64,000 nt of DNA from Denitrobacterium detoxificans (GTDB lineage Bacteria; Actinomycetota; Coriobacteriia; Coriobacteriales; Eggerthellaceae), in the NCBI RefSeq assembly GCF_015062615.1, contig NZ_SUUH01000005.1, forward strand, positions 16,061-80,060. The letters run 5' to 3'. The notes beneath the pieces are model-generated. The model saw only the letters and a list, made by a program, of their open reading frames with translations. It was not told the origin of the DNA and ran no database searches. The translations under genes were made by a program, and so were the position numbers. The first letter of the stretch is position 1; each line of letters starts with the position of its first letter. Below are positions 11,116 through 57,167 of the stretch, one piece after another.

Positions 11116-12945
11116 ATGGGTATCAGTCGTAAGCTAGTCTCCGTTTTGCTCGCATGCGTGTTGTCGGTTGCCTGGGTGCCGGCAATGGCGTTTGGCGTGG
11201 CGGATGAATATGAGGTCGCCAATGCCCCCGATCAAAGTGCCGTGCAGCCTCAGGAGCCTTCCGCTCAGCCGGAGGGACAGAACGAGCTCGGGCCCCAATC
11301 AAATGAAGCAGGAGATGGTAGCGAGCTTGCGCCCGCGTCCACGGGGTCTCTTGAGACGCAATCTGTCGTCAATGATATAGCTACCTTCACTTATTCGTAT
11401 ACGGGCGAATTCGTTGACATGCGGGTTGGCGATGGTGGCGAAAATATGACCGATCTGCCTCAGGGCTCGTTCGAAGGCTATCAAACTACGTACTATTCCG
11501 ATCAGGGAAAAGTCGTTTTTCATTTCTCTGTGCTGTTCATCGAGAAAATGACGAGCCTGACCATCAATGGCGTTGATTACAGTAGCTACATTCCCGATAC
11601 GAAGCAGGAAAAGCTCGACGCGTTTACGTATCAGCATACGGAGTTCGACGTTACCGTTTCGAGATCTAATACGTACGAGATTGCTACGTCAACCGTTCGC
11701 GATGATGACCCTGCAGTAGGCAATTTCCTCTGGTCGTACATGGATGTCGATGCTGGTACCGATGATTACATCGACCGTGGAACGCTGGAATTCGTGAGCG
11801 TTGAATATGATGGCGATACCTATACCGAAGCGGACTTGAAAGAGGGCTCGGCATTCGATTGGGTGGCCGATGAGAACGAGGGTGGAGCGGTATTCCCCGC
11901 GGGCTCTCTGCTCACTGTGAGGCTTGTGCCCAATCACGGCATGCAGCTCATTTCCTTTGGTGTGAACGGCGGCACGTTCGACACGGGCGAAAATGCGTCG
12001 GAGTACTCGTTCGAGGTTGCCAAGGGCAATTTCCACCTAGCGGCCCATTTTGACGAGGTCGATGATGCGGTAGTGTCTGATGATGATGCTATTTCGGGCG
12101 GGTCGATTGTGCTGTCCGATAAAGACGTCGATTCTGGTTCGGCTATCTTGTCCGTTGATAGCGCCAAGGTGAGCGACGATGAGCTTAATGCGCTGCAGAC
12201 GGCTGCAACGGGGGCTGGGGAGTATACGGTGCAAAGTGTCGTTGACCTTTCTTTGAACCAGGTCATCTACAAGGGAGTGAACGATGCGTCGACTGCCTGG
12301 ACGGCCTCTCTTGGATCTGATGAGCCCCTTGAGGAGAACGCCGTTGTTTCCCTGAAGCTGGCTGACGGCGATCAATACGGTTCGGTCGTGGTGGTTCATC
12401 AGGAGCATGACGGCACCTGCGTGGCAGTGCCGACGCAGTATGATTCCGCGACGCAAACGGCTACGTTCGAGACGGATGGTTTTTCGAATTACGCCATTGC
12501 TACGACGGAGGCCGCGGTAGAGTCTGCGGCGGTGTATCGCCTGTACAATCCGAATTCTGGTGAGCACTTCTTTACGATGAGCGAGTCGGAATACGCAAAC
12601 GTGAAAGCGGCGGGCTGGAACGATGAGGGCGTTGCATGGCAGGCTCCGCTTGAGGGTGCTGAAGTGTATCGCTTGTACAACCCGAACGGGGGAGACCATC
12701 ACTTCACGATGAGCGTCGAAGAGCGCGATATGCTGAAGAAGCTTGGCTGGAACGACGAGGGTGTTGCCTTCTGCAGCGCCGATGAGAGTGGCGTTCCCGT
12801 TCATCGCCTCTACAATCCCAATGCTCTTGCGGGGAACCACATGTTTACGGCAAGCCAGGACGAGAGCGATTTCGTTAAGGCGGCAGGCTGGAACTACGAA
12901 GGCATTGGCTGGTATGCCGTCGATGTTGAGGGCGAGCCTGTATAG
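11116..12945 (+). CDS. secreted wall-associated protein with three C-terminal YRLYNPN..GW..EG (DUF5648-like) repeats
   Basis: Signal peptide MGISRKLVSVLLACVLSVAWVPAMAFG; three about 43-aa repeats at the C-terminus (about 12525-12945). Confidence 0.85.
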   Translation: MGISRKLVSVLLACVLSVAWVPAMAFGVADEYEVANAPDQSAVQPQEPSAQPEGQNELGPQSNEAGDGSELAPASTGSLETQSVVNDIATFTYSYTGEFVDMRVGDGGENMTDLPQGSFEGYQTTYYSDQGKVVFHFSVLFIEKMTSLTINGVDYSSYIPDTKQEKLDAFTYQHTEFDVTVSRSNTYEIATSTVRDDDPAVGNFLWSYMDVDAGTDDYIDRGTLEFVSVEYDGDTYTEADLKEGSAFDWVADENEGGAVFPAGSLLTVRLVPNHGMQLISFGVNGGTFDTGENASEYSFEVAKGNFHLAAHFDEVDDAVVSDDDAISGGSIVLSDKDVDSGSAILSVDSAKVSDDELNALQTAATGAGEYTVQSVVDLSLNQVIYKGVNDASTAWTASLGSDEPLEENAVVSLKLADGDQYGSVVVVHQEHDGTCVAVPTQYDSATQTATFETDGFSNYAIATTEAAVESAAVYRLYNPNSGEHFFTMSESEYANVKAAGWNDEGVAWQAPLEGAEVYRLYNPNGGDHHFTMSVEERDMLKKLGWNDEGVAFCSADESGVPVHRLYNPNALAGNHMFTASQDESDFVKAAGWNYEGIGWYAVDVEGEPV

Positions 12946-12966
12946 ATCTCGCTTGTGAATCGTTGC

Positions 12967-13203
12967 GGGCGCGGGGCGGGGTTGCCCTTCGGGGCACCCG
13001 CTCCGCTGCTCGCGTGGGCAAGGCCCCAGGCGGGCCTTGCCCTACGCTCGTGCGCTCGCTGGTTCATGCTTTCACTTGGCGCTGCCCGGACTTTCCTTGG
13101 CGTTTCGGAAACTGCGTTTCCGCCCCGCCTTCGGAAGGTCCGTATGCAACGCTTTTCTTATTGGCTTTCACAGTGCCCCTATGGGCAACCCCGCCCCGCG
13201 CTC
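12967..13203 (+). repeat. structured mosaic repeat, copy A (long type)
   Basis: 19-bp perfect closing stem GCGCGGGGCGGGGTTGCCC/GGGCAACCCCGCCCCGCGC around the conserved core blocks shared with copies C, D, G, H and B2. Confidence 0.9.
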
Positions 13204-13715
13204 CACGTAGTTCCGATCGGGTCAATTCTACCCACGCACCCCTACCCCTCGACAGCCTCCCATCCAAGTAGGACTTCTATAAATCGGGACGGGTTGTTGT
13301 TGCGCCGCTTATCGTGAAGATTATTATCTCGTTGCCTGCCTCAACTTCTCTGATGATGCGTAGTTTGACGAAGTCGCTTGCCTGTAATTCCGAAACTGTT
13401 GTTTGGTGTTTCATTACCTGTTAAGCACTATTCTGAATGCCTGATGGGGTTGTTTCCCGGGTTGGTTATTTACTCGGGAAGGGGTGAACAAGGAACGCAG
13501 GCGAAGCCGAACGTTCCGTAGTTCACCAGGGATGGAGCAAGCAGTGCCCGTGAACGGGGGACGGAGGCTTGTTCACGCGGAATCGGATGATTCCCGACCG
13601 GACGCGCCACCCGAAGAGCCTACCAGCGCTCTGCCATGCGAAGCGAGTGGAGCGCGATTAGGGCTGCCGCAGGTTGAGCGGCCAAGGATAGCGCCCAATC
13701 GGTCGGAGCCGGTAG

Positions 13716-13785
13716 CCCATAGGGGCACTGTGAGAGCAAGCTGGAAACACGCTACGTTTGGGATGCGGCGTGGAGGCGCAGCATC
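13716..13785 (-). repeat. structured mosaic repeat, truncated copy B1
   Basis: GGGGCACTGTGAGAGCAAGCTGGAAACACGCTACGTTTGGGATG... matches the 3' third of the element (compare copy D), then breaks off. Confidence 0.6.
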
Positions 13786-13905
13786 ATGCATAATTGTAGG
13801 CAACGGTGTTTATGCCCTCGGTTCTGGCCTCGACTTAAAGAAGAGCCTACCAGCGCTCCGGCAGGTATCAGGGTAGGGGACAACGGGACCTGCTTCTGGA
13901 CTGGC

Positions 13906-14101
13906 GATTGCTGCCCTGCCGGTGATGCTCGCAAGGTCACTGTGAAAACAAAAAAAGAAGTTGCTTGGCTTAGCCAAGCAACCCGATAAATGCATGAACC
14001 AGCGAGCGCACGAGCGGAGGTTTCGGCCCGTGCGGGGCCGAAACCACGCGAGCAGCGGAGCGGGTGACCTGAAGAGTATCACCGGCAGGGCAGCCGCGAT
14101 C
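13906..14101 (-). repeat. structured mosaic repeat, copy B2 (short type)
   Basis: Core blocks present in reverse orientation. Closing stem CTGCCCTGCCGGTGAT/ATCACCGGCAGGGCAG. Central module replaced by GTTGCTTGGC-TTA-GCCAAGCAAC hairpin plus A/T tract. Confidence 0.85.
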
Positions 14102-14102
14102 G

Positions 14103-14165
14103 GATAAAAAAGCAGGCCCCTTTCGGGACCTGCTCAAAATTCGTGGCGGAGAGCTGGGGATTCCG
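14103..14165 (-). pseudogene. duplicated tRNA-Ser 3' end (24 nt) plus duplicated terminator
   Basis: TTCGTGGCGGAGAGCTGGGGATTC is identical to 14335-14358. The adjacent hairpin CAGGCCCC..GGGACCTG parallels the tRNA terminator at 14300-14335 with a compensatory base-pair change. Confidence 0.75.
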
Positions 14166-14338
14166 GCGTTCGCTTCGCGAACCCCGAACCCTCCCTCGCA
14201 GGCTCGGTCGGGCGAATTCCTAAAAGCCGTCCACTGGACGGCTTTCTTAACGGAATTCCACCTCATCGGTTCGAATCCCCAGTAACGGATCCCGAATAAT
14301 AAAAAAACAGGTCCCATTCGGAACCTGCTAGGATTTCG

Positions 14339-14429
14339 TGGCGGAGAGCTGGGGATTCGAACCCCAGATACCCTTTTGGGGCATACTCGCTTAGCAGGCG
14401 AGCACCTTCGGCCTCTCGGTCAGCTCTCC
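14339..14429 (-). tRNA. tRNA-Ser (anticodon GCU)
   Basis: Hand-folded: acceptor GGAGAGC/GCTCTCC, anticodon loop CTGCTAA, long variable arm, T-loop GGTTCGAATCC, encoded CCA. Confidence 0.92.
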
Positions 14430-24057: not shown

Positions 24058-24966
24058 GTGTTCAACAAGAGGTGGATATTCATTGGGCTCGTTGTCATGC
24101 AGACGGCCATCTACGGGATGGGTAACGTCGTCATGAAGATTGCCTACGAGGGTATTTCTCCCCTGTGGTGCGCTGCCTTGCGCTTTGGTATTGCATTCGC
24201 CGTGTTCATGCTCGTGTTTGGGCGCAAGGTTGTCCCTCTGCTGCGTGGTGTCCGCCTAGGCGCCTGGCTGCCTTCGAGCGCCTTCATGGCCGTGAGCTAT
24301 CTTGCGTGCAGCTTGGCCGTCAACCTTACGAGCGCTACGAATGCTGGCTTCTTCATTGCTCTGCCCATGCTGTTTACGCCTGTGCTGTCGCTTCTCGTGA
24401 CGGGAAGCAAATTCGGCAAGAGCACGGTGTTTCTGCAGGGCATGGTCATAGCGGGTTTGTATCTGCTGTGCTGCAATGGTGGTGCGCTCCAGTTCGGATG
24501 GGGCGAGCTGTTCGGCCTGTTCAGCTCTGCTACGTTTGCCGCTTCCCTGGTGTTTGGCGAACGAGGCCTGGGCGAAGTTGATCCCATTGCCCTTTCCACT
24601 GCCCAGATAGGCGTTACGTTCGTTGCCGCTTTGGGCGCTGCTATCGCTTTCGAGTCGATGCCCGTCTTCTCCGCGGTGCCTGTTGCCAGCTGGGCGTCCA
24701 TCGTCTTCTTGGGGCTGTTCGGAACCTGTTTGGCGTTCTTCCTGCAGAACTTCGCGTTGGCTCATGTGCCTTCCGCGACCGTTTCCGTCATCCTGTGCGC
24801 CGAGCCCGTCTTCACCGCTGCTATCAGCGCCGTGGCTCTGGGGGAGGTGCTTACTGGCCTAGGGGTCGCCGGTGCCGCCCTCATCGTGGCCTCCACCGTT
24901 GTGGCTTCGCGCCTCGAATCCAAGCCCGCCGCTGAACAGGGGCAGCTTTCCGCCGCTGAAGCCTAG
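24058..24966 (+). CDS. EamA/DMT-family transporter
   Basis: ORF trimmed to GTG 24058 after AGGAAGG; 10 hydrophobic segments in two EamA-like halves. Confidence 0.8.
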   Translation: MFNKRWIFIGLVVMQTAIYGMGNVVMKIAYEGISPLWCAALRFGIAFAVFMLVFGRKVVPLLRGVRLGAWLPSSAFMAVSYLACSLAVNLTSATNAGFFIALPMLFTPVLSLLVTGSKFGKSTVFLQGMVIAGLYLLCCNGGALQFGWGELFGLFSSATFAASLVFGERGLGEVDPIALSTAQIGVTFVAALGAAIAFESMPVFSAVPVASWASIVFLGLFGTCLAFFLQNFALAHVPSATVSVILCAEPVFTAAISAVALGEVLTGLGVAGAALIVASTVVASRLESKPAAEQGQLSAAEA

Positions 24967-24977
24967 TTCGGTCCCGG

Positions 24978-25206
24978 GGCCGACCGGCATATGCCCTTCG
25001 GGGCACCCGCTCCGCTGCTCGCGTGGGCAAGGCCCCGCACGGGCCTTGCCCTACGCTCGTGCGCTCGCTGGTTCATGTTTTTACTTGCGCTGCCCGGGCC
25101 TTCCTTGGCGTTTCGGAAACTGCGTTTCCGCTCCGCCTTCGGAAGGCCCATTTGCAGCGCATTTGTTTGCTTTCACAGTGCCCCTGCGGGCATATCCCGG
25201 TCGGCC
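24978..25206 (+). repeat. structured mosaic repeat, copy C (long type)
   Basis: Closing stem GGCCGACCGGCATATGCCC/GGGCATATCCCGGTCGGCC (1 mismatch) around the conserved core; starts 11 nt after the EamA stop. Confidence 0.9.
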
Positions 25207-25581
25207 TAGCGTTCCGGGGTGCTTGTAGCGGATGTAAGCCTCTTGCGGGCGCCTCATGCTTGCTACGAGGTGCGAGGGCGTCATCGCCGTCCCGCAACGA
25301 TGAGTGCGGCCCTTTGTAAATCTTTATTTGGCTTGCAACCCGTTGGGCTCGCATGTCTTCGTTGTGGTCAATCGGGTTTAAAGGTTTAAACCTTCTCAGC
25401 TTCGGCAGCGCGGGCTCCGTGCGGGGTCGTGGCCCTTTCGAGGGGTTGGTTTGCTAACGAGTGTGTACCGTCTCGTGTGGGCATACGCGTTCCAGCAAGA
25501 CTCTTCGAGTTGCGACTGGCGTTTCGTGTGATGTTGAGGGGATAGCCAATCGTGGCGGGCCCACCCGAATCCGCGCTAGCG

Positions 25582-25822
25582 CCCGGGCGGCGCCCCTTCC
25601 CGAGGGCACTGTGAAAGCCAACCAGAAACGCGCTACGTTCGGGATGGGGCCGTAGAGGGCGGGAAGCGCAGCTTCACGCGTATCTACGCCCCATCCCGAA
25701 CAGCGCGAAGTGAAAGCATGAACCAGCGAGCGCACGAGCGTAGGCTTCGGCCCGTGTGGGGCCGAAGCCACGCGAGCAGCGGAGCGGGTGCCTCGGGGAG
25801 GGACGCCGCCTGTCCGCCCGGG
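25582..25822 (-). repeat. structured mosaic repeat, copy D (long type, degenerate closing stem)
   Basis: Core blocks in reverse orientation. Central stem replaced by TTCGGGATGGGGC/GCCCCATCCCGAA. Confidence 0.85.
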
Positions 25823-25835
25823 AGCGCATAGATAT

Positions 25836-25865
25836 GAAAAAGGGCCAGCCCCGAAGGACTGACCC
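25836..25865 (-). terminator. intrinsic terminator of pknB operon
   Basis: On minus strand: GGGTCAGTCC-TTCG-GGGCTGGCCC (two G.U pairs) followed by TTTTT. Confidence 0.85.
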
Positions 25866-25886: not shown

Positions 25887-27845
25887 CTAGTTGGAACTCG
25901 ATGAGCTCGAACTGGAAGAGTCGGAGCTACTGGAGTCGCTCGACGACGAGCTGGAACCGCTCGAAGAGGAGCTGGAAGAGCTTGCGGGGCCCGTGCTGAC
26001 GTAGATGGAGATGGACCCATCGGAGTTCTTCTTCTGGTCGATGACGACGCCCTTGGCAACGGTGCTGCTGGACTGATCGACCACGTGTACGTCAAAGTCG
26101 CTCAGCTCGGAAAGCGCTTCCGACTGGGTGAGGCCAATTACGTTGGGGACGGACTGCTGTCCCAGCGATACCACGTAGGTGACCTTGGTGCCCTTTTCGA
26201 CCTTCGTGCTCTTCGAGGGGTTCTGCGAGATGATGCAACCCTTGGCGACCGTGGTGGAATACTGGGAATCGCTTGCGCTACCCGTAAGGCCAACGGCTTC
26301 GAGTGCTTCCTTGGCTTCGGATTCCGTCATGCCGGAAAGATCGGGCACGGAAACGTTCTGAGAGCCCTTGGACAGGTAGTACGTAACGGTGGTGCCCGTG
26401 TCTACCTTCGTGCCGGCGGTAACGTCCTGACGGGCTACCGTGCCTTCGGCGGCACTATCGGAGTATTCGGAGGTGCCTTCCTTGGCGGTGAGCCCCAGCT
26501 TGCTAAGCGCGGCTTTTGCCTGGTCGGCCGTCATGCCGGAAAGGTCGGGAACTTCGATTTGCTCCTTGCCCTTGGAAACGTTCAGATTCACCGTGGTGCC
26601 TTCGGCGGCCTTGGTGCCAGCCGAGGGGTCGGTGGAGACCACGTTACCTGCAGCAACGGTATCGCTGTACACCTCGGTGGTGGTGCCCACTTCGTAGCCA
26701 GATGCCTTCAGCGTTACGGCGGCTGCCTGCGCGCTTTGGCCCGTTACGTCGGGAACCGTGCCCTCCTTGTTGCCGGTAATGAGGAACACGGCTGCGGCGA
26801 TGACCGCAACGACAACAATGAGCAGCAAGGCTACCACGATGTTGCGATTGCGCTTCTTCTTGCGTAGCGCCTCTTCGTCGACCGCCTTCATGGTGCGCGC
26901 CGCCTGGGTGGGGGCGCCCGTAGCGCCGTCGACGGCAGGCATGACCTGCGTGCCGTCGGCCATGGGCGGCACGAATGCGCCTGCCATGACATGCGTTGCG
27001 TCGGCCATGTTCACCGGGCGACCGGCAAGGTAGTCGTTCAGCGCATGCTTCATGTCGCTTACGGTGGCGAAACGCGCCAGCGGATCCTTTTCCAGGGCGC
27101 GCATGATGATCTGCTCCAGGCCAGGGTCGACCTCGGGGTTGATTTCGCTCGGCGGAACGGGATATTCGCTCACCTGCTTCATGGCCACGCTTACGCTGTC
27201 GGGACCATCGAAGGGCAGCTTGCCCGTAACGGCCTCGTACATGACCACGCCAAGCGAGTAGATGTCGCTGGCGGGGGTGAGGTCTTTACCCTGTGCCTGT
27301 TCAGGCGAAATGTAATGCGCAGTGCCCAGCACGGCAGACGTCTGCTGCTTCATGGAGTTCTTCGCGCGTGCAATACCGAAGTCCATGACCTTCACGTTGC
27401 CGTCGGGCTGGACCATGATGTTTTGCGGCTTCACGTCGCGGTGAATGATGTCCTGGTTGTGTGCCACGGAAAGAGCCTGGCACACCTGGGAGCCAATTTC
27501 CGCGACCTTGCGCTGGCTAATGGCGCCACGCTGCGTGATGGCCGTCTTCAGGTCGCTGCCGCGCACGTATTCCATGACGATGAAGTACGTATCGCCGTCA
27601 TGGCCCCAGTCGTACACATTTACGATGTAGGGACTCTGCAGGTTGGCTGCCGATGCAGCTTCCTGGCGGAAACGCTGCGTGAAATCGGCGTCGGCGGCGT
27701 ATTGGGGGAGCATGACCTTCACCGCAACGACGCGACCGAGTACGCGGTCTTGCGCGCGGTATACTTCCGCCATGCCACCGATGCCAATGCGGTCGGTGAG
27801 CTGATAGCGGTTATTGAAGACTCTGCCTACCATGTTTCCGTTCAC
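25887..27845 (-). CDS. pknB: Ser/Thr protein kinase with PASTA repeats and poly-Ser tail
   Basis: GTG 27845 lies 7 nt after AAGGAG (ATG 27833 is an alternative). VAVK, HRDVKPQN, DFG and SPEQ motifs, TM segment, repeated PASTA-like units, C-terminal SSSSSSSSGSSSSSSDSSSSDSSSSSSSSSN. Confidence 0.93.
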   Translation of the reverse strand: MNGNMVGRVFNNRYQLTDRIGIGGMAEVYRAQDRVLGRVVAVKVMLPQYAADADFTQRFRQEAASAANLQSPYIVNVYDWGHDGDTYFIVMEYVRGSDLKTAITQRGAISQRKVAEIGSQVCQALSVAHNQDIIHRDVKPQNIMVQPDGNVKVMDFGIARAKNSMKQQTSAVLGTAHYISPEQAQGKDLTPASDIYSLGVVMYEAVTGKLPFDGPDSVSVAMKQVSEYPVPPSEINPEVDPGLEQIIMRALEKDPLARFATVSDMKHALNDYLAGRPVNMADATHVMAGAFVPPMADGTQVMPAVDGATGAPTQAARTMKAVDEEALRKKKRNRNIVVALLLIVVVAVIAAAVFLITGNKEGTVPDVTGQSAQAAAVTLKASGYEVGTTTEVYSDTVAAGNVVSTDPSAGTKAAEGTTVNLNVSKGKEQIEVPDLSGMTADQAKAALSKLGLTAKEGTSEYSDSAAEGTVARQDVTAGTKVDTGTTVTYYLSKGSQNVSVPDLSGMTESEAKEALEAVGLTGSASDSQYSTTVAKGCIISQNPSKSTKVEKGTKVTYVVSLGQQSVPNVIGLTQSEALSELSDFDVHVVDQSSSTVAKGVVIDQKKNSDGSISIYVSTGPASSSSSSSSGSSSSSSDSSSSDSSSSSSSSSN

Positions 27846-27905
27846 GTATAAACTCCTTTTGGGCACATGCTAGCGAGATATTACCTTAACGCTAGCATAC
27901 TCCAT

Positions 27906-38387: not shown

Positions 38388-38460
38388 AGGTGACAGGGGG
38401 ACGTACCTACTGTCACCTGGTGATTTCCAAGGTGACAGTAGGTACGTCCCCCTGTCACCT
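38388..38460. repeat. nested perfect palindrome with four GGTGACAG/CTGTCACC half-sites at 21-bp phasing
   Basis: 31-bp perfect arms 38388-38418 / 38430-38460. Half-sites start at 38389, 38410, 38431 and 38452. Confidence 0.9.
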
Positions 38461-39474: not shown

Positions 39475-39676
39475 GGTAATTCCTTCCAGTTTGGTATGAT
39501 TTCGGCACATTCTACGACTAGGGTACGTTGCAATCAATGCCAAATTGGCTTCGGTTGCGGTTATTTACGTAAATGACTTTATTCGGCTGTAGCGTGTGCG
39601 GGCCCGTCCGCGCTTCTCCTTCGGAGCGGGTGTCCCGAAGGGGGATGCGCGGGCGGGTCTCCGGGGCCTTCCGGCG

Positions 39677-51060: not shown

Positions 51061-52374
51061 ATGGACGAGTTCTTCAAGATTTCCGCTCGTGGATCGAGTG
51101 TGCGAACGGAGGTTATAGCCGGTCTGACGACGTTTCTTACCATGGCATATGTGGTCGCCGTCAATCCGGCTATGCTGCAATTGGTGGGCATGTCGTTTAA
51201 CGCGGCGCTCACTGCCACGTGCTTCGGTGCGGCTATCATGACGCTGATCATGGGCCTAGTTGCCAACCGTCCTGTTGCTTTGGCCACGGGCATGGGCCTG
51301 AATGCTGTGGTCGTGTACAGCATCTGCCTGGGTACGGGCGTCGACTGGCGCGTAGCTATGGCGTGCGTGCTGTTGGAAGGCCTGGTCATTCTGCTGCTGG
51401 TTGCGTTTGGCCTGCGCGAGGCCATCCTGAACGCAATCCCCACCAGCCTGCAGCATGCCATCGGCATTGGTATTGGCCTGTTCATCGCTTTCATTGGCCT
51501 GAAGGGCGGCGGCCTTATCGTGGATAGCAGCGCTTCGCTGATTACTATGGGCAGCATTCGCCAGCCCGTGGCCGTGGTGTCCATCTTGTCGATTGTTCTG
51601 GCCATTGGGTTTACCGTGCTGAAGGTACGCGGTGCCCTCATGTGGTCCATTCTCATTTCCACGATCGTGGGCATTCCGCTGGGCGTTACCGTGCTGCCTA
51701 CCGATTGGAATTTCGGCCTGGACTTCAGCGCTTTCGCCGCTCCCATTCAGACTACGCCTGAAGGCACCATTGCCATTCTGCAGGTGTTCCTGGAGCCCGT
51801 TCTGCTGATGTTCGTATTCAGTATGATCATGAGCGACTTCTTCGATACCATCGGCACCGTGTTCGCCGTGGGCGAGAAGGCTGGTTTCGCCGAGCATAAC
51901 GGCCGCATCATCGGCCTGCGCAAGATCCTGGTTGTTGACTCCATCGCCGCTGCCGTTGGTGGCTGGATTGGCGCAAGCTCCATTACGAGCTACGCGGAAT
52001 CCACTGCCGGCGCCGCCGCTGGTGCTCGTACGGGTCTTTCCAACGTGGTCGTTGCCGTTTGCTTCGTGCTGTGCGCGTTCCTGGCTCCCATCATTGGCAT
52101 GATTTCCAGCTCTGCTACCTGCGGTGCCCTGGTGGTTGTTGGCTATCTGATGATGAGCTCGATTGCGGATATCGATTGGAAAGATCCTGCGATGGCCATC
52201 CCGTCGTTCCTGACGATCGCTGGCATCCCCATGACCTACTCCATCACCGATGGTATCGGTTTCGGCTTCATCTTCTACTGCTTCGTGATGTTCGCCATGG
52301 GCCGCTTCAAGGAAGTGCATCCGCTCATGTGGGGTACGTCGGCTGCGTTCCTGGTGGCATACTTCATGATTTAG
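51061..52374 (+). CDS. NCS2/AzgA-family purine (guanine/hypoxanthine/adenine) permease
   Basis: ATG 51061, 7 nt after GGAAGG. MDEFFKISARGSSVRTEVIAGLTTFLTMAYVVAVNP is a typical PbuG/AzgA N-terminus. Confidence 0.9.
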   Translation: MDEFFKISARGSSVRTEVIAGLTTFLTMAYVVAVNPAMLQLVGMSFNAALTATCFGAAIMTLIMGLVANRPVALATGMGLNAVVVYSICLGTGVDWRVAMACVLLEGLVILLLVAFGLREAILNAIPTSLQHAIGIGIGLFIAFIGLKGGGLIVDSSASLITMGSIRQPVAVVSILSIVLAIGFTVLKVRGALMWSILISTIVGIPLGVTVLPTDWNFGLDFSAFAAPIQTTPEGTIAILQVFLEPVLLMFVFSMIMSDFFDTIGTVFAVGEKAGFAEHNGRIIGLRKILVVDSIAAAVGGWIGASSITSYAESTAGAAAGARTGLSNVVVAVCFVLCAFLAPIIGMISSSATCGALVVVGYLMMSSIADIDWKDPAMAIPSFLTIAGIPMTYSITDGIGFGFIFYCFVMFAMGRFKEVHPLMWGTSAAFLVAYFMI

Positions 52375-52379
52375 TGTCC

Positions 52380-52589
52380 GCGCTGCGGGGTGGGGGATGC
52401 CCTTGGGGGCACCCGCTCCGCTGCTCGCGTGGTTTCGGCCCCGCACGGGCCGAAACCTACGCTCGTGCGCTCGCTGCTTCATGCATATACTTGGATTTTT
52501 CGCCCAAGGCGAAAAATCGGGCCCAGCTGAGCTGGGCCTTTTTGTTTGCTTTCAGAGTGCCCCCAAGGGCATCCCCCACCCCGCAGCGC
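52380..52589 (+). repeat. structured mosaic repeat, copy G (short type)
   Basis: 23-bp perfect closing stem GCGCTGCGGGGTGGGGGATGCCC/GGGCATCCCCCACCCCGCAGCGC. The central module is two hairpins, the second being GGGCCCAGC-TGA-GCTGGGCC followed by TTTTT. Confidence 0.9.
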
Positions 52590-52639
52590 TACCCAATCCG
52601 CTTGTGCCCCCAGAAGCGCGCGCTTTGGGGCGCGCTTTC

Positions 52640-52844
52640 CCGATCGGGAATCGCCTCACGGGCGCGGGCGCCCTGCTGCGCGCCCGTCCGACGACCCTTG
52701 CAGTTATGCAATAGGAACCCAGCCGCAGCAGGGCGCAAAGCGAAGCGAGCGCCCGTACGGCGACCTCACGACCCGGCGAGTGGAACCCAACCGCAGCAGG
52801 GCGCGCAGCGAAGCGCCCGCGCCCGTGAGGCGATTCCCGATCGG
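52640..52844. repeat. second type of palindromic element: 31-bp perfect inverted arms enclosing two about 66-nt tandem units
   Basis: Arms CCGATCGGGAATCGCCTCACGGGCGCGGGCG (52640-52670) and its exact complement (52814-52844). Tandem units start with GGAACCCARCCGCAGCAGGGCGC at 52714 and 52782. Confidence 0.85.
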
Positions 52845-52905
52845 TCCCAGGTCCCCAAGAGGTCCCGCACGGATGGGACGGGCTGTGGCGCAACCACCGG
52901 TTGTA

Positions 52906-53140
52906 GGGCCGGCCCGCGTCCCCCTGCGGGGGCACTCTGAAAGCAAACCAGAAACGCGCTATGCCCGGGGCTTCCGGAGGCGGAGCGGAAACGCAGTTTC
53001 CGCAAACGCCTCGGAAGCCCCGGGCAGCGCGAAGTAAAAGCATGAAGCAGCGCAGCGCACGAGCGTAGGCCTGGGCCCGTGAGGGGCCCAGGCCACGCGA
53101 GCAGCGGAGCGGTGCCCCGCAGGGGGACGCGGGCCGGCCC
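52906..53140 (-). repeat. structured mosaic repeat, copy H (long type)
   Basis: Closing stem GGGCCGGCCCGCGTCCCCC/GGGGGACGCGGGCCGGCCC. Lies 24 nt downstream of the stop of the 1282-aa gene. Confidence 0.9.
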
Positions 53141-53164
53141 CGGGACAGAACGAGGGGGTAAGGG

Positions 53165-56100
53165 CTACAGCCCGTACCAGCCGATGCCCTCGTACTTCCA
53201 GCCGAGTTTGCGCAGCCCGTCGCGTTCGCTCGCGCTCGTCGTGTAGTGGTGCGAGCCGGACTTGGCGTTCGGGTTGTACAGGCGGTAGAGCGGCGTCGTC
53301 TTGTTGTCGTCGGAGTACCAGCCGATGCCCTCGTACTTCCAGCCAAGGCCCCTCAGCCAGTCGCGCTCCTCGGCGCTCATGGTGTAGTGGTGGTCACCAC
53401 CGTTGGGGTTGTACAGGCGGTACACGGGCGTGTTGCTCGTTGCGGGCGCCGTCCAGCCGATGCCCTCGTATTTCCACCCGAGCTTGCGCAGGCCGTCGCG
53501 CTCCTCGGCGCTGGCCGTGTAGAAGTGCTCGCCGCCGTTCGGGTTGTACAGGCGATACATGCTTTGCTTACTCGTGCCGCTGGAATCTACGATTTGGAAC
53601 GCAGCGACGCGCGAGCCCTTGTAATAGTGGCCGGTTGCAATGACGTATACCGTTGCGGTGCCAGGGTTGATATTGTTGACGTACTGCAGGGTGTAGTCGA
53701 CGTCCTTGCGCAGGGTTACGCCCTTCACGATGACCGAGGGGTTGGGCGTTACGGCCTTGCCCGTGTATGCCTGCGGGGAAACGACGTTGATGATCACGTC
53801 AGTTTCGGTGGTTAGATCCACAACGTTCGCGATGAAGACGGGGAAGTGGCCATTCACGTTGTTCGAGTCGAAATGGAAGGGCGTGCCCAGCGTGGTGTCG
53901 GCGAAGTCCACGCTCTGCATCACTTCGGACGTTTGTTTGGTGATGCCGTCCCCTGCCAGCCTTCCAGCCGCTTGCGTGCAGGAAAGCTCCAGGTAGTGGG
54001 TATTTTCGAAGGTTGCGTTCCCATTGGCAACGTCGCCGCAGATGGCGCCTGCCGCAGTTCCCGTAAGGTCTACTCCGTTGTACGTTACGAGCCCCGTGTT
54101 GTATGCGCGCTTTACGGTAAGCTGGCTCGTCGCCCAGCCCACCAGGCCGCCGGCATACGGTCCGTCGGCGGCAAGACCCGATACGGTAACGTATCCTGTG
54201 TTGTATGCACTTTCCACGCGTACGTTGTACCCGCAGCCTTCCAGGCCGCCTGCCATGCCGCGTGACGTGATGTTTCCACTGTTGTACGACGTCAGAAACT
54301 CGCTGCTGCTTGCGCAGGATTCGCCATTCGCACTGCCTGCAAAGCCCAGCAATCCGCCTACGCGCGTAGCGTTGGGCGCTTGGATGTTGCCGGTGTTGGC
54401 GCAGTCTTGGAACACGACGTGCGCGTTGGGGAGCGCGCGCCCCAACATGCCTCCCACGCCTTCGGTTTCCAGTCCGTCGGTGACGGAGCCCGATGTGAAG
54501 CAAGAATTGAACGTGAGCGAGCCTTCTTTCATGACGCCCACGAGTCCTCCCAGATCGGCCGCAGACGCGGAAACGGCTACGCTGCTACTGACGTTGTAGA
54601 ACGTCGTCTCTCCGCCGTTCACCGTCTCTGCAAGGGCAGGTCGCGACATGGTGCCGGCAAGCACGAGGTCTTTCACTTCCGTTTGCTCGTGTGACCCGGA
54701 AATGGCATTGAACAGGGGCTGCGTGGTGCCTGCATGCATGGTGATGGTGTGTCCGCCGCCATCGAAGCTTCCCGCAAAGGGCGACGCAATGCCAATGGAG
54801 GGCACAAGGGGCGAAGTGTCGGTGTTTACCAGGTCGAGGTCGGCGGTCAGCTTGTAATGCGCCGAGCCATAGGCGGGGAAGTCGTTTTCGATGCAGTACT
54901 GCATGTAGGCAAGTGCGCCTACGGAGTCGATGACGTAGGGGTCGTTTTCGGTGCCCGTGCTTGCGTTGGCGAACGAATCGGGGCCTGCGGCAACGGCAAA
55001 TTGAACTTGCATGCTGCCGCTGTAGTTGCCTCCGGGAACGGCTACCGCGTCAACGCTGCCAAGCGGTGCGGCGGTCTTCGTATTTCCGCTGTTCCAGTCC
55101 AGGGTGTAGTCGACGTTTTCCTGCAGCTGCTTGCCCGCGGCATTGGTAATGGTGATGGTGGGGCGCACCAGGTTGTTGCCGCCGAAGTTCCAGGTGCTGG
55201 TAGCGGTGTACGTGCAGTTGCTTGTGCCCAGGTTGGCTGGGTCGATGGTGAAAGCGTGCGGTCCGTTTTGCGTTCCCGCATAGGCGCCCGCACCCGTTAC
55301 GGTGAACGTTGCGGGGCTCGTGCTCGTGGTGACATTGGTGTTGTTGCTGCCCGTAACCGTGTAGTCGGAATCGGGATTGAGCTCGGTGCCGTTCAGCACG
55401 ACGCGGATGTCGGAAGGCAGAATTGCTTCGCCTGTATACGTTACCGTTTCGCTGTACGAGATAGTGGCGTCTTCCAGGTTGACCGAGGGCTCCTCCAGGC
55501 CCAGCTGCCAATAGAGCACGGGGTATCCGTAGTTGGGCTTTGAGCTTTCGTGGCCGTCGATGAAGTATGCCCCCAGTTTGCTTGCGCCCTGTCGCTTCAA
55601 ATCGTCGAACGAGAGGGGCAGGGCGTTTGATTGGCTAACGGTGGGTGCCACGAGTCCGCCGGTATCGGTTTCTCGCGTGCCTGCCCAGCCTGCGGCTGCA
55701 TCGCCGCGGAAGTAGCAGTTCCCAATGCGAATTTCGCTGCCTTCTTCGCCCACGCCTGCCAGGCCCACCATACCGCCTACGGAAGTGGATCCGTCGGCTT
55801 GGCTTTGCTTGCCCATGAGGCTTGCGCTATAGGTGTTCGTGATGGCCAGGCGGTATAGTCCGCCTTGCGCGCGTCCTACGATGCCTCCCAGGTACGCCGT
55901 TCCGCCTACGGGGGTTCCAATGACGGTGTATTCGCGATCGTTTTCCGCGGCGCTGAAGCAGTTGGAGATGGTCAGCTTGCAGCCGCTATTCGCGCCCACG
56001 AGGCCGCCGCCTGCGGCAGAGGCGGAAACGCTACCCGTGTTGCCACATGCGCTTATGGTTACCGTGGGTGGCGTGCTGGCGGATTCAGCTTCGCAGAGGC

Positions 56101-57013
56101 CTACGAGTCCGCCGGCGTTGCCAGCGTTTTCGCCCACGCTGCCCGCCCTAATGAGCCCCGTGTTGGTGCTTGCGGCGTTGAAGTCCAGGTAGTTGCGCGA
56201 TGCGTGCAGCGAGAGGTCGCAATCGAGCGCGTATCCCACCATGCCGCCTGCGGCCTTCATACCGCTTACGGGCCCGCAGGTTTCGCATCCGTCGATGGTG
56301 AGAGTCCCCGTCGCCTTGCCAACCAGGCCGCCAGCGATGCTGCTACTGCCGTTTGCTGTGGCTGCAACGGAACACGTGACGCCTTCGAACGTAACGTTGC
56401 CATCCGCAACGCCCAGCACGCCCGCGGCGATTTGTCCCACGCCTGTGGCCGTGGTGGTGCCCGAAAGGTCGAAATCCCTGAATGTGGCGTCGTACCCCGC
56501 TGCCGTGGCGCCGAAGAGCGACGCCATCTTGTATTGCAGCGTCATGTCGGTGATGCCAATTTGGTTGAGCTTGATGGAGTGCCCGTTGCCGTCGAAGGTG
56601 CCGCAGAAGTACGCGTAATCGACTACGCGTTCGCCTTCTTCGCCGATGGTCGTATGCTCGCCCCAGCCAATGGGTGACCAGGCGGTTTCTCCTGATGCGT
56701 CGATATTGGCGGTAAGCGCATAGTGGGCCGTCTGCGCGGCAGTGGGCGTGTACGTGCTGCCCGAGAGCTCTCCGGGCTTGTTCACCTCGCTCATCATGTA
56801 GCGCAGCTGGGCCACGTTGGCAATCTGATATGGATCGCTTGCCGTGCCCGTGCCCCCTGCATACGAGGTAGCAGGTTCGGTATCCGCAAAGGCGGATGCG
56901 GGCAGGAGAATCATCGCGACCGCGAAGAGGGCGCAGAGTAGAGCGCCCAGGCCCGCTTTGGAACGTGCCGTTTTCCGTGACTTCAGACTACCCAAGTGCG
57001 ACTGTACGTGCAT
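53165..57013 (-). CDS. giant wall-associated surface protein with GLUG-type repeats, Ig-like region and three C-terminal DUF5648-like repeats
   Basis: ATG 57013 after GGGGG (ATG 57025 is an alternative). Signal peptide ..ALLCALFAVAMILLPASAFA. Many GG(L/M)VG..N.G repeats. C-terminal YRLYNPNGGEHFYT..GWKYEGIGW x3. Confidence 0.88.
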   Translation of the reverse strand: MHVQSHLGSLKSRKTARSKAGLGALLCALFAVAMILLPASAFADTEPATSYAGGTGTASDPYQIANVAQLRYMMSEVNKPGELSGSTYTPTAAQTAHYALTANIDASGETAWSPIGWGEHTTIGEEGERVVDYAYFCGTFDGNGHSIKLNQIGITDMTLQYKMASLFGATAAGYDATFRDFDLSGTTTATGVGQIAAGVLGVADGNVTFEGVTCSVAATANGSSSIAGGLVGKATGTLTIDGCETCGPVSGMKAAGGMVGYALDCDLSLHASRNYLDFNAASTNTGLIRAGSVGENAGNAGGLVGLCEAESASTPPTVTISACGNTGSVSASAAGGGLVGANSGCKLTISNCFSAAENDREYTVIGTPVGGTAYLGGIVGRAQGGLYRLAITNTYSASLMGKQSQADGSTSVGGMVGLAGVGEEGSEIRIGNCYFRGDAAAGWAGTRETDTGGLVAPTVSQSNALPLSFDDLKRQGASKLGAYFIDGHESSKPNYGYPVLYWQLGLEEPSVNLEDATISYSETVTYTGEAILPSDIRVVLNGTELNPDSDYTVTGSNNTNVTTSTSPATFTVTGAGAYAGTQNGPHAFTIDPANLGTSNCTYTATSTWNFGGNNLVRPTITITNAAGKQLQENVDYTLDWNSGNTKTAAPLGSVDAVAVPGGNYSGSMQVQFAVAAGPDSFANASTGTENDPYVIDSVGALAYMQYCIENDFPAYGSAHYKLTADLDLVNTDTSPLVPSIGIASPFAGSFDGGGHTITMHAGTTQPLFNAISGSHEQTEVKDLVLAGTMSRPALAETVNGGETTFYNVSSSVAVSASAADLGGLVGVMKEGSLTFNSCFTSGSVTDGLETEGVGGMLGRALPNAHVVFQDCANTGNIQAPNATRVGGLLGFAGSANGESCASSSEFLTSYNSGNITSRGMAGGLEGCGYNVRVESAYNTGYVTVSGLAADGPYAGGLVGWATSQLTVKRAYNTGLVTYNGVDLTGTAAGAICGDVANGNATFENTHYLELSCTQAAGRLAGDGITKQTSEVMQSVDFADTTLGTPFHFDSNNVNGHFPVFIANVVDLTTETDVIINVVSPQAYTGKAVTPNPSVIVKGVTLRKDVDYTLQYVNNINPGTATVYVIATGHYYKGSRVAAFQIVDSSGTSKQSMYRLYNPNGGEHFYTASAEERDGLRKLGWKYEGIGWTAPATSNTPVYRLYNPNGGDHHYTMSAEERDWLRGLGWKYEGIGWYSDDNKTTPLYRLYNPNAKSGSHHYTTSASERDGLRKLGWKYEGIGWYGL

Positions 57014-57167
57014 AACGACCCCCATCGCCGCGCGTGAAATGTAATCTCAATTCTACCATTTTCTCAGTTCAGGTGCACTAAACAGCTGGTTTTCGTCTTC
57101 GCGACAGCTTGTTATTCAGGCTGTTTTAAGGCGTGGTTTGTAGAGTCGGGTACAGTCAACGAGAGGA

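Follow-up and report, generated by a model that had tools for sequence, protein, structure and literature searches.

Intergenic repeats of bacteria normally keep their ends while the interior drifts. The REP and BIME elements of Proteobacteria, and the REPINs with their RAYT transposases, are extragenic hairpin repeats enriched 3' of genes and between convergent genes; they are inherited vertically at orthologous sites for long periods, and BIMEs are mosaic. ERIC, Correia (CREE) and the pneumococcal BOX and RUP elements are imperfect palindromes of 100-300 bp that are co-transcribed with neighbouring genes. BOX repeats are modular, and some Correia elements act as terminators or RNase III substrates. 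Template switching within quasi-palindromes (Ripley model) produces concerted changes of both arms and clustered, slipped-register templated changes.

The family described here reverses the usual pattern, its core being conserved and its ends locus-specific. Its members, modular intergenic repeats of 190-290 bp that fold strongly, occur in the Denitrobacterium detoxificans species complex and are uncatalogued; they were analysed in one stretch of 64,000 nucleotides (the window) together with related genomes. The family resembles REP, BIME and REPIN elements in being extragenic, strongly hairpin-forming, located 3' of genes, vertically persistent and mosaic. In those elements, however, the arms are conserved and the loop is variable, whereas here the arms are locus-specific, and hence not REP palindromes, and a 'loop' of 130-220 nt is conserved; moreover, the present host is an actinobacterium of the rumen. 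ERIC, Correia, BOX and RUP are likewise palindromic intergenic repeats of similar size, BOX also being modular, but all of them have conserved terminal inverted repeats, to which Correia and RUP add target-site duplications; neither feature occurs here, and no sequence or covariance-model similarity links them to the present element.

Integron attC sites are comparable as folded single-strand sites directly 3' of ORFs, in fixed orientation and with structure kept while sequence varies. Their outer boxes (R''/R') are conserved and their centre is variable, the reverse of the pattern seen here, and the neighbours here are convergent housekeeping genes, not cassette arrays. Changes of the Ripley type are seen in copy L044b and in copy D of the window, but the model describes a general mutational process, not an element, and leaves the conserved core and the position unexplained.

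The evolutionary record of the family is legible: whole helices were exchanged, both arms of a stem were sometimes changed together, and deletions and rearrangements were caused. Since the host is cultured and a complete genome is available (strain NPOH1), the family is a tractable system for the creation and upkeep of long palindromes in chromosomes. It also bears on the concerted evolution of dispersed repeats and on whether such modules supply genes with terminators or 3'-end protection.

Copies in the window and distribution

An nhmmer profile built from the six full copies returned these six, fragment B1, a weak match at 39622-39646 and nothing else in the window. The census of an earlier sequence-only reading, six full copies plus the fragment, is thereby confirmed, and one further remnant (39601-39659) has been added. 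The near-identical blocks reported in that reading were recovered as well, with 5-6 matches each versus 0 by chance.

12967-13203, + strand: copy A (profile match 12957-13208), 22 nt past the stop codon of a DUF5648 gene (11116-12945)
12967-12994, + strand: copy A, 5' arm
12995-13017, + strand: copy A, block 1
13018-13040, + strand: copy A, P2 tip
13041-13078, + strand: copy A, block 2
13079-13153, + strand: copy A, P3 hairpin
to 13175, + strand: copy A, block 3
13176-13203, + strand: copy A, 3' arm
13710-13789, - strand: fragment B1 (nhmmer profile positions 162-251, E=9e-9)
13906-14101, - strand: copy B2 (profile match 13896-14115), whose short P3 is a canonical terminator (13984-13958)
24978-25206, + strand: copy C (profile match 24961-25223), 12 nt past the stop codon of an EamA transporter gene
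25582-25822, - strand: copy D (profile match 25566-25840), 3' of a PASTA kinase gene (25887-27866)
39601-39659, - strand: remnant of a convergent pair, X1/X2 (weak profile match 39622-39646 and strain comparison)
52380-52589, + strand: copy G (profile match 52364-52603), 5 nt past the stop codon of an NCS2 permease gene
52906-53140, - strand: copy H (profile match 52895-53150), 25 nt past the stop codon of a DUF5648 gene (53165-57025)

Fragment B1 holds the 3' part alone, i.e. half of P3, block 3 and the beginning of the 3' arm CCCCTATGGGCTAC. The DUF5648 protein encoded upstream of copy H has 1286 aa.

A search of the whole window against Rfam 15 at the gathering threshold gave two tRNAs only, and at E<=10 nothing relevant was found between 12900 and 14400. 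The comparison with known RNA motifs that had been recommended, Collinsella-1 and other actinobacterial motifs included, thus yielded no covariance-model match to the element. Blastn against plasmid and phage collections gave no match. A two-block DNA pattern scan with one genome per species returned only the MAG RUI283 (Eggerthellaceae), besides chance matches in GC-rich genomes; the scan was not exhaustive, as the complete genome of NPOH1 (CP011402.1) carries the exact pattern yet was not returned. The same type of scan gave four chance matches in metagenomes and none in viruses. Exact-protein look-ups for EamA and DUF2207 led to the same strain only. Proteins of the window fall into 90%-identity clusters that carry the name Denitrobacterium detoxificans. 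The nearest other genera are Cryptobacterium and Curtanaerobium, 76-80% identical at the protein level.

Family-wide terminal inverted repeats are absent among 17 sites, and no direct target-site duplication was found outside the stems in the flanks inspected. The element is therefore not a classical MITE, as the sequence-only reading had argued. The spacing of the end anchors is at most about 225 nt in all 30 complete copies with both anchors. As the defining features of the MITE, REP/REPIN, attC and Rfam families were tested and found lacking, the element stands outside all of these.

Many short-read metagenome contigs end inside or at the edge of an element (L003, L005, L006, L091, L092, L109-L112). 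The family thus breaks assemblies of this organism, with a practical effect on rumen metagenomes.

Architecture and exchange of modules

The anatomy of the element was taken from alignments of about 30 copies. Three family-wide sequence blocks build a three-way junction of P1, a P2 arm and a P3 hairpin, and a locus-specific stem closes the whole. From the 5' end, the locus-specific 5' arm is followed by the semi-conserved CCC-N4-GGGGCA (P1), block 1 (CCCGCTCCGCTGCTCGCGTGG), the P2 tip, block 2 (CCTACGCTCGTGCGCT(G)CGCTGSTTCATGCWTTTACTT), P3, block 3 (GCTTTCASAGTG), CCCC-N4-GGG and the 3' arm. The base of the P2 arm is conserved and its tip exchangeable: some copies have a 23-nt hairpin there, others a branched variant of about 75 nt. 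P3 is one of several unrelated, exchangeable hairpins, and about half of the copies have a U-rich tract after it. Conservation extends to the junction strands, which are single-stranded and AU-rich.

RNA folds of whole elements reach z-scores of -8.7 to -14.3 against shuffled sequence; folded as single-stranded DNA the architecture is unchanged (z-score -7.5). As RNA, antisense folds are slightly more stable than sense folds, and there is no clear strand signal, so that nothing singles out a sense RNA.

Covariation of internal helices, claimed earlier from the window copies, was found for the P2 arm and for P1. In the P2 arm 98.7% of the cells are paired and 9 of the 21 pairs carry double-sided changes; among 378 cells 34 have both sides altered, and a one-sided change is seen in none. 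This level was attained by 0 of 500 shuffles, and the signal was lost when partners were slid. An indel covaries as well, CACCCGC occurring with GCT-CGCTG and CACC-GC with GCTGCGCTG. P1 occurs in the paired variants GGGCA/TGCCC, GGACA/TGTCC and GGTCA/TGACC.

Strains that are 92-97% identical hold copies at the same loci, which indicates that the copies are old. Orthologues of A and B2 are present in RUI283, those of C and D in NODE_211 and NPOH1, and those of H in all three (L012, L088, L107), with unchanged stem and different P2/P3. The G site is filled in eight strains, NPOH1 included, and the copy is absent from two contigs. Copies L044a and L044b are common to RUI283 and NPOH1. Long vertical persistence at orthologous extragenic sites is thus observed for A, B2, C, D, G, H and L044a/b.

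Modules differ between these orthologues. Copy A and its counterpart in RUI283 have an identical stem and a different P2. In NODE_211, copy C carries the 75-nt P2 variant and another P3. The P3 of copy D is long in the window, but at this locus NODE_211 and NPOH1 have a short, terminator-type P3. Copy H has CCTGG/CCAGG or CTTAG/CTAAG, depending on the strain. The core of copy D in the window resembles that of RUI283 copy L074a, which lies at another locus. P2 and P3 differ between orthologues but are common to paralogues, which argues that cores have been shuffled between loci; the aligned alleles point to module swaps of the kind expected if the conserved blocks serve as sites of recombination or gene conversion. 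The closing stems are private to each locus because the arms lie outside the shared homology. That the cores are nearly identical is due to exchange among old copies and not to recent transposition.

In one strain (L108, 10314-10800) the G copy is a recombinant of the G 5' half with a foreign 3' half and arm, and the downstream gene order is altered, with genes for a nitrate-reductase chaperone and for S8 peptidase; the repeats thus mediate rearrangements. At 39601-39659 a deletion between the convergent copies X1 and X2 has left the remnant: the X1 5' arm with 14 nt of core is joined to the X2 arm through GCTCC microhomology. X1 is complete in NODE_211 and NPOH1, and X2 is partial in NPOH1. 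Copies are shown by strain comparison to be substrates for deletion and rearrangement.

The X locus differs between strains by a 3.3-kb indel (window 39603-39622 versus L087/L088 of NODE_211). NODE_211 has genes for an FAD-binding oxidoreductase and a LysR regulator, both missing from the window.

Closing stems and position at gene ends

The closing sequences had been described as unrelated between copies yet self-complementary within each, around a conserved core. This pattern extends to 17 distinct sites, related genomes included: own-partner arm duplexes average -49.6 kcal/mol versus -25.5 kcal/mol for arms of different copies, and the own partner is the best partner in 17/17 sites. Arm complementarity amounts to 33/33 in G, 93% over 29 nt in A and 87% over 31 nt in B2. 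Counted from the core, nearly all copies have a locus-specific helix of 26-30 bp that runs uninterrupted into P1, with zero leftover loop bases. The outer 15-20 bp of the arms are unrelated among the 17 sites, and the inner CCC-N4-GGGGCA / TGCCCC-N4-GGG is semi-conserved. Stem boundaries were read by eye, as automatic MFE calling over-extends stems; by this count C precedes the stem and T follows it in 12/17 sites. No further match to the arms was found in about 330 kb of species-complex DNA, and a role as guides was rejected on this ground.

Most stem changes between orthologues are uncompensated (C, D, X, L044a), which indicates stems that decay rather than stems under strict selection. In copy D the 3' arm is partly decayed in the window strain, and orthologues have a perfect 27-bp stem. 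Concerted changes also occur: one base pair of the G stem changed from T:A to C:G, and in L044b a 3-nt block changed in both arms, from GCA/TGC to ATG/CAT. A clustered change in the 3' arm of copy D in the window recreates a 9-mer located 8 nt away in the 5' arm and is, by analogy with the Ripley model, a signature of slipped, hairpin-templated copying. Of the earlier proposal of helices under selection in an RNA or single-stranded DNA, the covariation of the P2 arm and P1 is supported; the closing stems do not look selected pair by pair, and neither strand is clearly the better folder.

Each copy in the window lies directly 3' of a gene and in the orientation of that gene, B2 following a duplicated tRNA-Ser 3' end and a terminator. 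In the window, RUI283 and NPOH1 taken together, at least 15/17 sites are in sense orientation downstream of a gene or its terminator, and none is antisense. The neighbours in the window are chromosomal housekeeping genes (ATP synthase operon, PASTA kinase, NCS2 permease). A canonical terminator is found 10-90 nt upstream of 7/17 copies, which may therefore be transcribed very little; in the window, a terminator after the duplicated tRNA-Ser end (14135-14110) is closely upstream of B2, and that of the PASTA kinase gene (25865-25842) precedes D. Copies B2 (13984-13958) and G (52519-52539, within the P3 region) themselves carry a canonical terminator as P3 module, a GC-rich hairpin followed by a T run. 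In copies A, C, D and H the P3 hairpin is long and its T-rich tail interrupted, and none of them was called by the terminator scan; several RUI283 copies have poor T tracts.

Downstream of the tRNA-Ser(GCT) gene (14339-14429, - strand), its last ~25 nt and its terminator are repeated. Positions 14104-14163 are 87% identical to 14299-14358, with odd tRNA-like debris between. The duplication (14104-14429) has the appearance of a scar left by a former integration of an element at the 3' end of the tRNA gene.

At about an even chance, judged from the compared sequences, the family is an uncatalogued, taxonomically narrow mosaic intergenic repeat akin to REP/BIME, ERIC, BOX and Correia and a putative 3'-end gene module. 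Its stems would have been made perfect in one step, one arm being copied from the other, and would later decay, with hairpin-templated repair occasionally restoring symmetry. The element would be co-transcribed with the upstream gene and might terminate transcription, protect the 3' end by its structure or insulate convergent genes from each other. A rather low probability is given to the broader alternative that the private stems arise from the element's own propagation or maintenance (an inverted target-site duplication), or that the family is a new class of structured RNA with processing or identity helices.

More specifically, the copies could be functional structured RNAs in multiple copies, e.g. 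small RNAs derived from 3' UTRs, the closing stem being an RNase III-type processing stem that releases the core. Such RNAs would agree with the strong P2 covariation with almost no broken pairs, with the character of the junction strands and with the placed copies being all sense and 3' of genes. We nevertheless consider them unlikely, as one-sided changes (G-C to G-U) are found in 0/378 P2 cells, antisense folding equals or beats sense, closing stems mostly decay between orthologues and 7/17 copies stand behind a canonical terminator. G.T mismatches in the stems outnumber A.C by 18 to 6 in the raw count, as a paired RNA would predict, but by about 12 to 6 for independent events without orthologous repeats, which is not significant.

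Origin of the stems and empty sites

The sequence-only reading had also suggested a mobile cassette that enters the apical loop of pre-existing long hairpins. In this form the gene-end hairpins (terminators) are the hosts and the private stems are older than the core. The copies do occupy places where terminators belong, and one part of the suggestion stands, as core modules at orthologous loci vary from strain to strain around an unchanged stem. The stretch of stem that is fully variable (15-20 bp) barely exceeds ordinary terminator stems, and the nesting of a second hairpin repeat within one copy's P2 tip shows that apical loops of this genome can accept insertions. Pre-existing long hairpins are nevertheless unsupported: the helices are continuous up to 33 bp (the perfect closing helix of copy G), lack leftover loop bases and are of uniform length (26-30 bp), and 7/17 copies already have a canonical terminator just upstream. 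Other hairpins of the window have stems of <=15 bp, which also counts against it, the single exception in 64 kb being an empty 31-bp hairpin at 38388-38460. The sole empty allele has one arm and no hairpin. Insertion into a loop is judged improbable.

The exception, 3' of a tRNA-Leu gene, is a perfect hairpin; its arms measure 31 bp and its loop 11 nt. In NODE_211 the corresponding region differs and has only a single-arm-like stretch, TCGTCCCCTGTTCAC. The hairpin may be a palindrome newly arisen in one strain.

The only empty allele was found at the G site in NODE_211 and L089 and reads TGTCC-GCCCCGCAGCGC-TACCC, i.e. flank, one arm and flank, with 12/20 variable nucleotides present. The empty strains nest among filled ones in a strain tree (midpoint rooting) and CCGC microhomology is present at the junction, which together make deletion likelier; from these alignments the allele is probably a deletion, and its reading as an untouched target is less likely. 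The recommended check for empty-site hairpins thus turned up an allele without one, and no untouched target site was found among the compared strains.

At the LPG-synthase/L23 locus two copies are present in the D. detoxificans complex, and the element is absent in two related genera (Curtanaerobium and a species with an LPG-synthase protein 80% identical). These loci were set aside as empty sites, the intergenic DNA being too diverged to align. In the S10 operon of Denitrobacterium and a related genus (L081, L113), glycosyltransferase and LPG-synthase-like genes lie between rplW and rplB, on the opposite strand.

The G-empty allele also bears on a model in which the insertion itself makes the stem, fold-back (snap-back) synthesis copying 15-20 nt of flank in inverted form as an 'inverted target-site duplication'. 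If true, this would be a mode of insertion and palindrome formation not described for bacterial repeats. The best stems are perfect, have a uniform length and run on into P1; the bases at the boundaries are biased (a preceding C, and a following T in 12/17 sites), and an allele of flank, one arm and flank is what such a target would look like. The slipped-register change in the 3' arm of copy D and the 3-nt block in both arms of L044b show arm-to-arm copying. Against the model, the position of the empty strains within filled ones and the CCGC microhomology favour deletion at this site, the allele holds only 12 of the 20 variable nucleotides, and copies A, L008 and L074b have a common motif 5' of unrelated stems. 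We know of no enzyme or precedent for fold-back creation of a stem at insertion, and regard this origin as doubtful. A protein-binding site at the DNA level is possible.

The motif shared by A, L008 and L074b is GCTTGTRAMTCGTYGC (window 12955-12966); in all three it stands directly 5' of the closing stem.

The second hairpin repeat family has arms like GGGACGGAGGTTTGTTCAC / GTGAACAAACCTCCGTCCC and was seen at 13484-13580 of the window, in L098 (7860-7950), in L012 (about 2380) and in L114 (5160-5250). The copy nested within a P2 tip is that in L044b of one strain (L114).

The spacer between G and H (52640-52850) is composed of repeated units of about 68 nt (GGAACCCAnCCGCAGCAGGGCGC..AGCGAAGCG), the number of which varies between strains (L088, L090, L107). 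It also contains a 46-nt inverted repeat of 93% identity (52640-52685 / 52799-52844).
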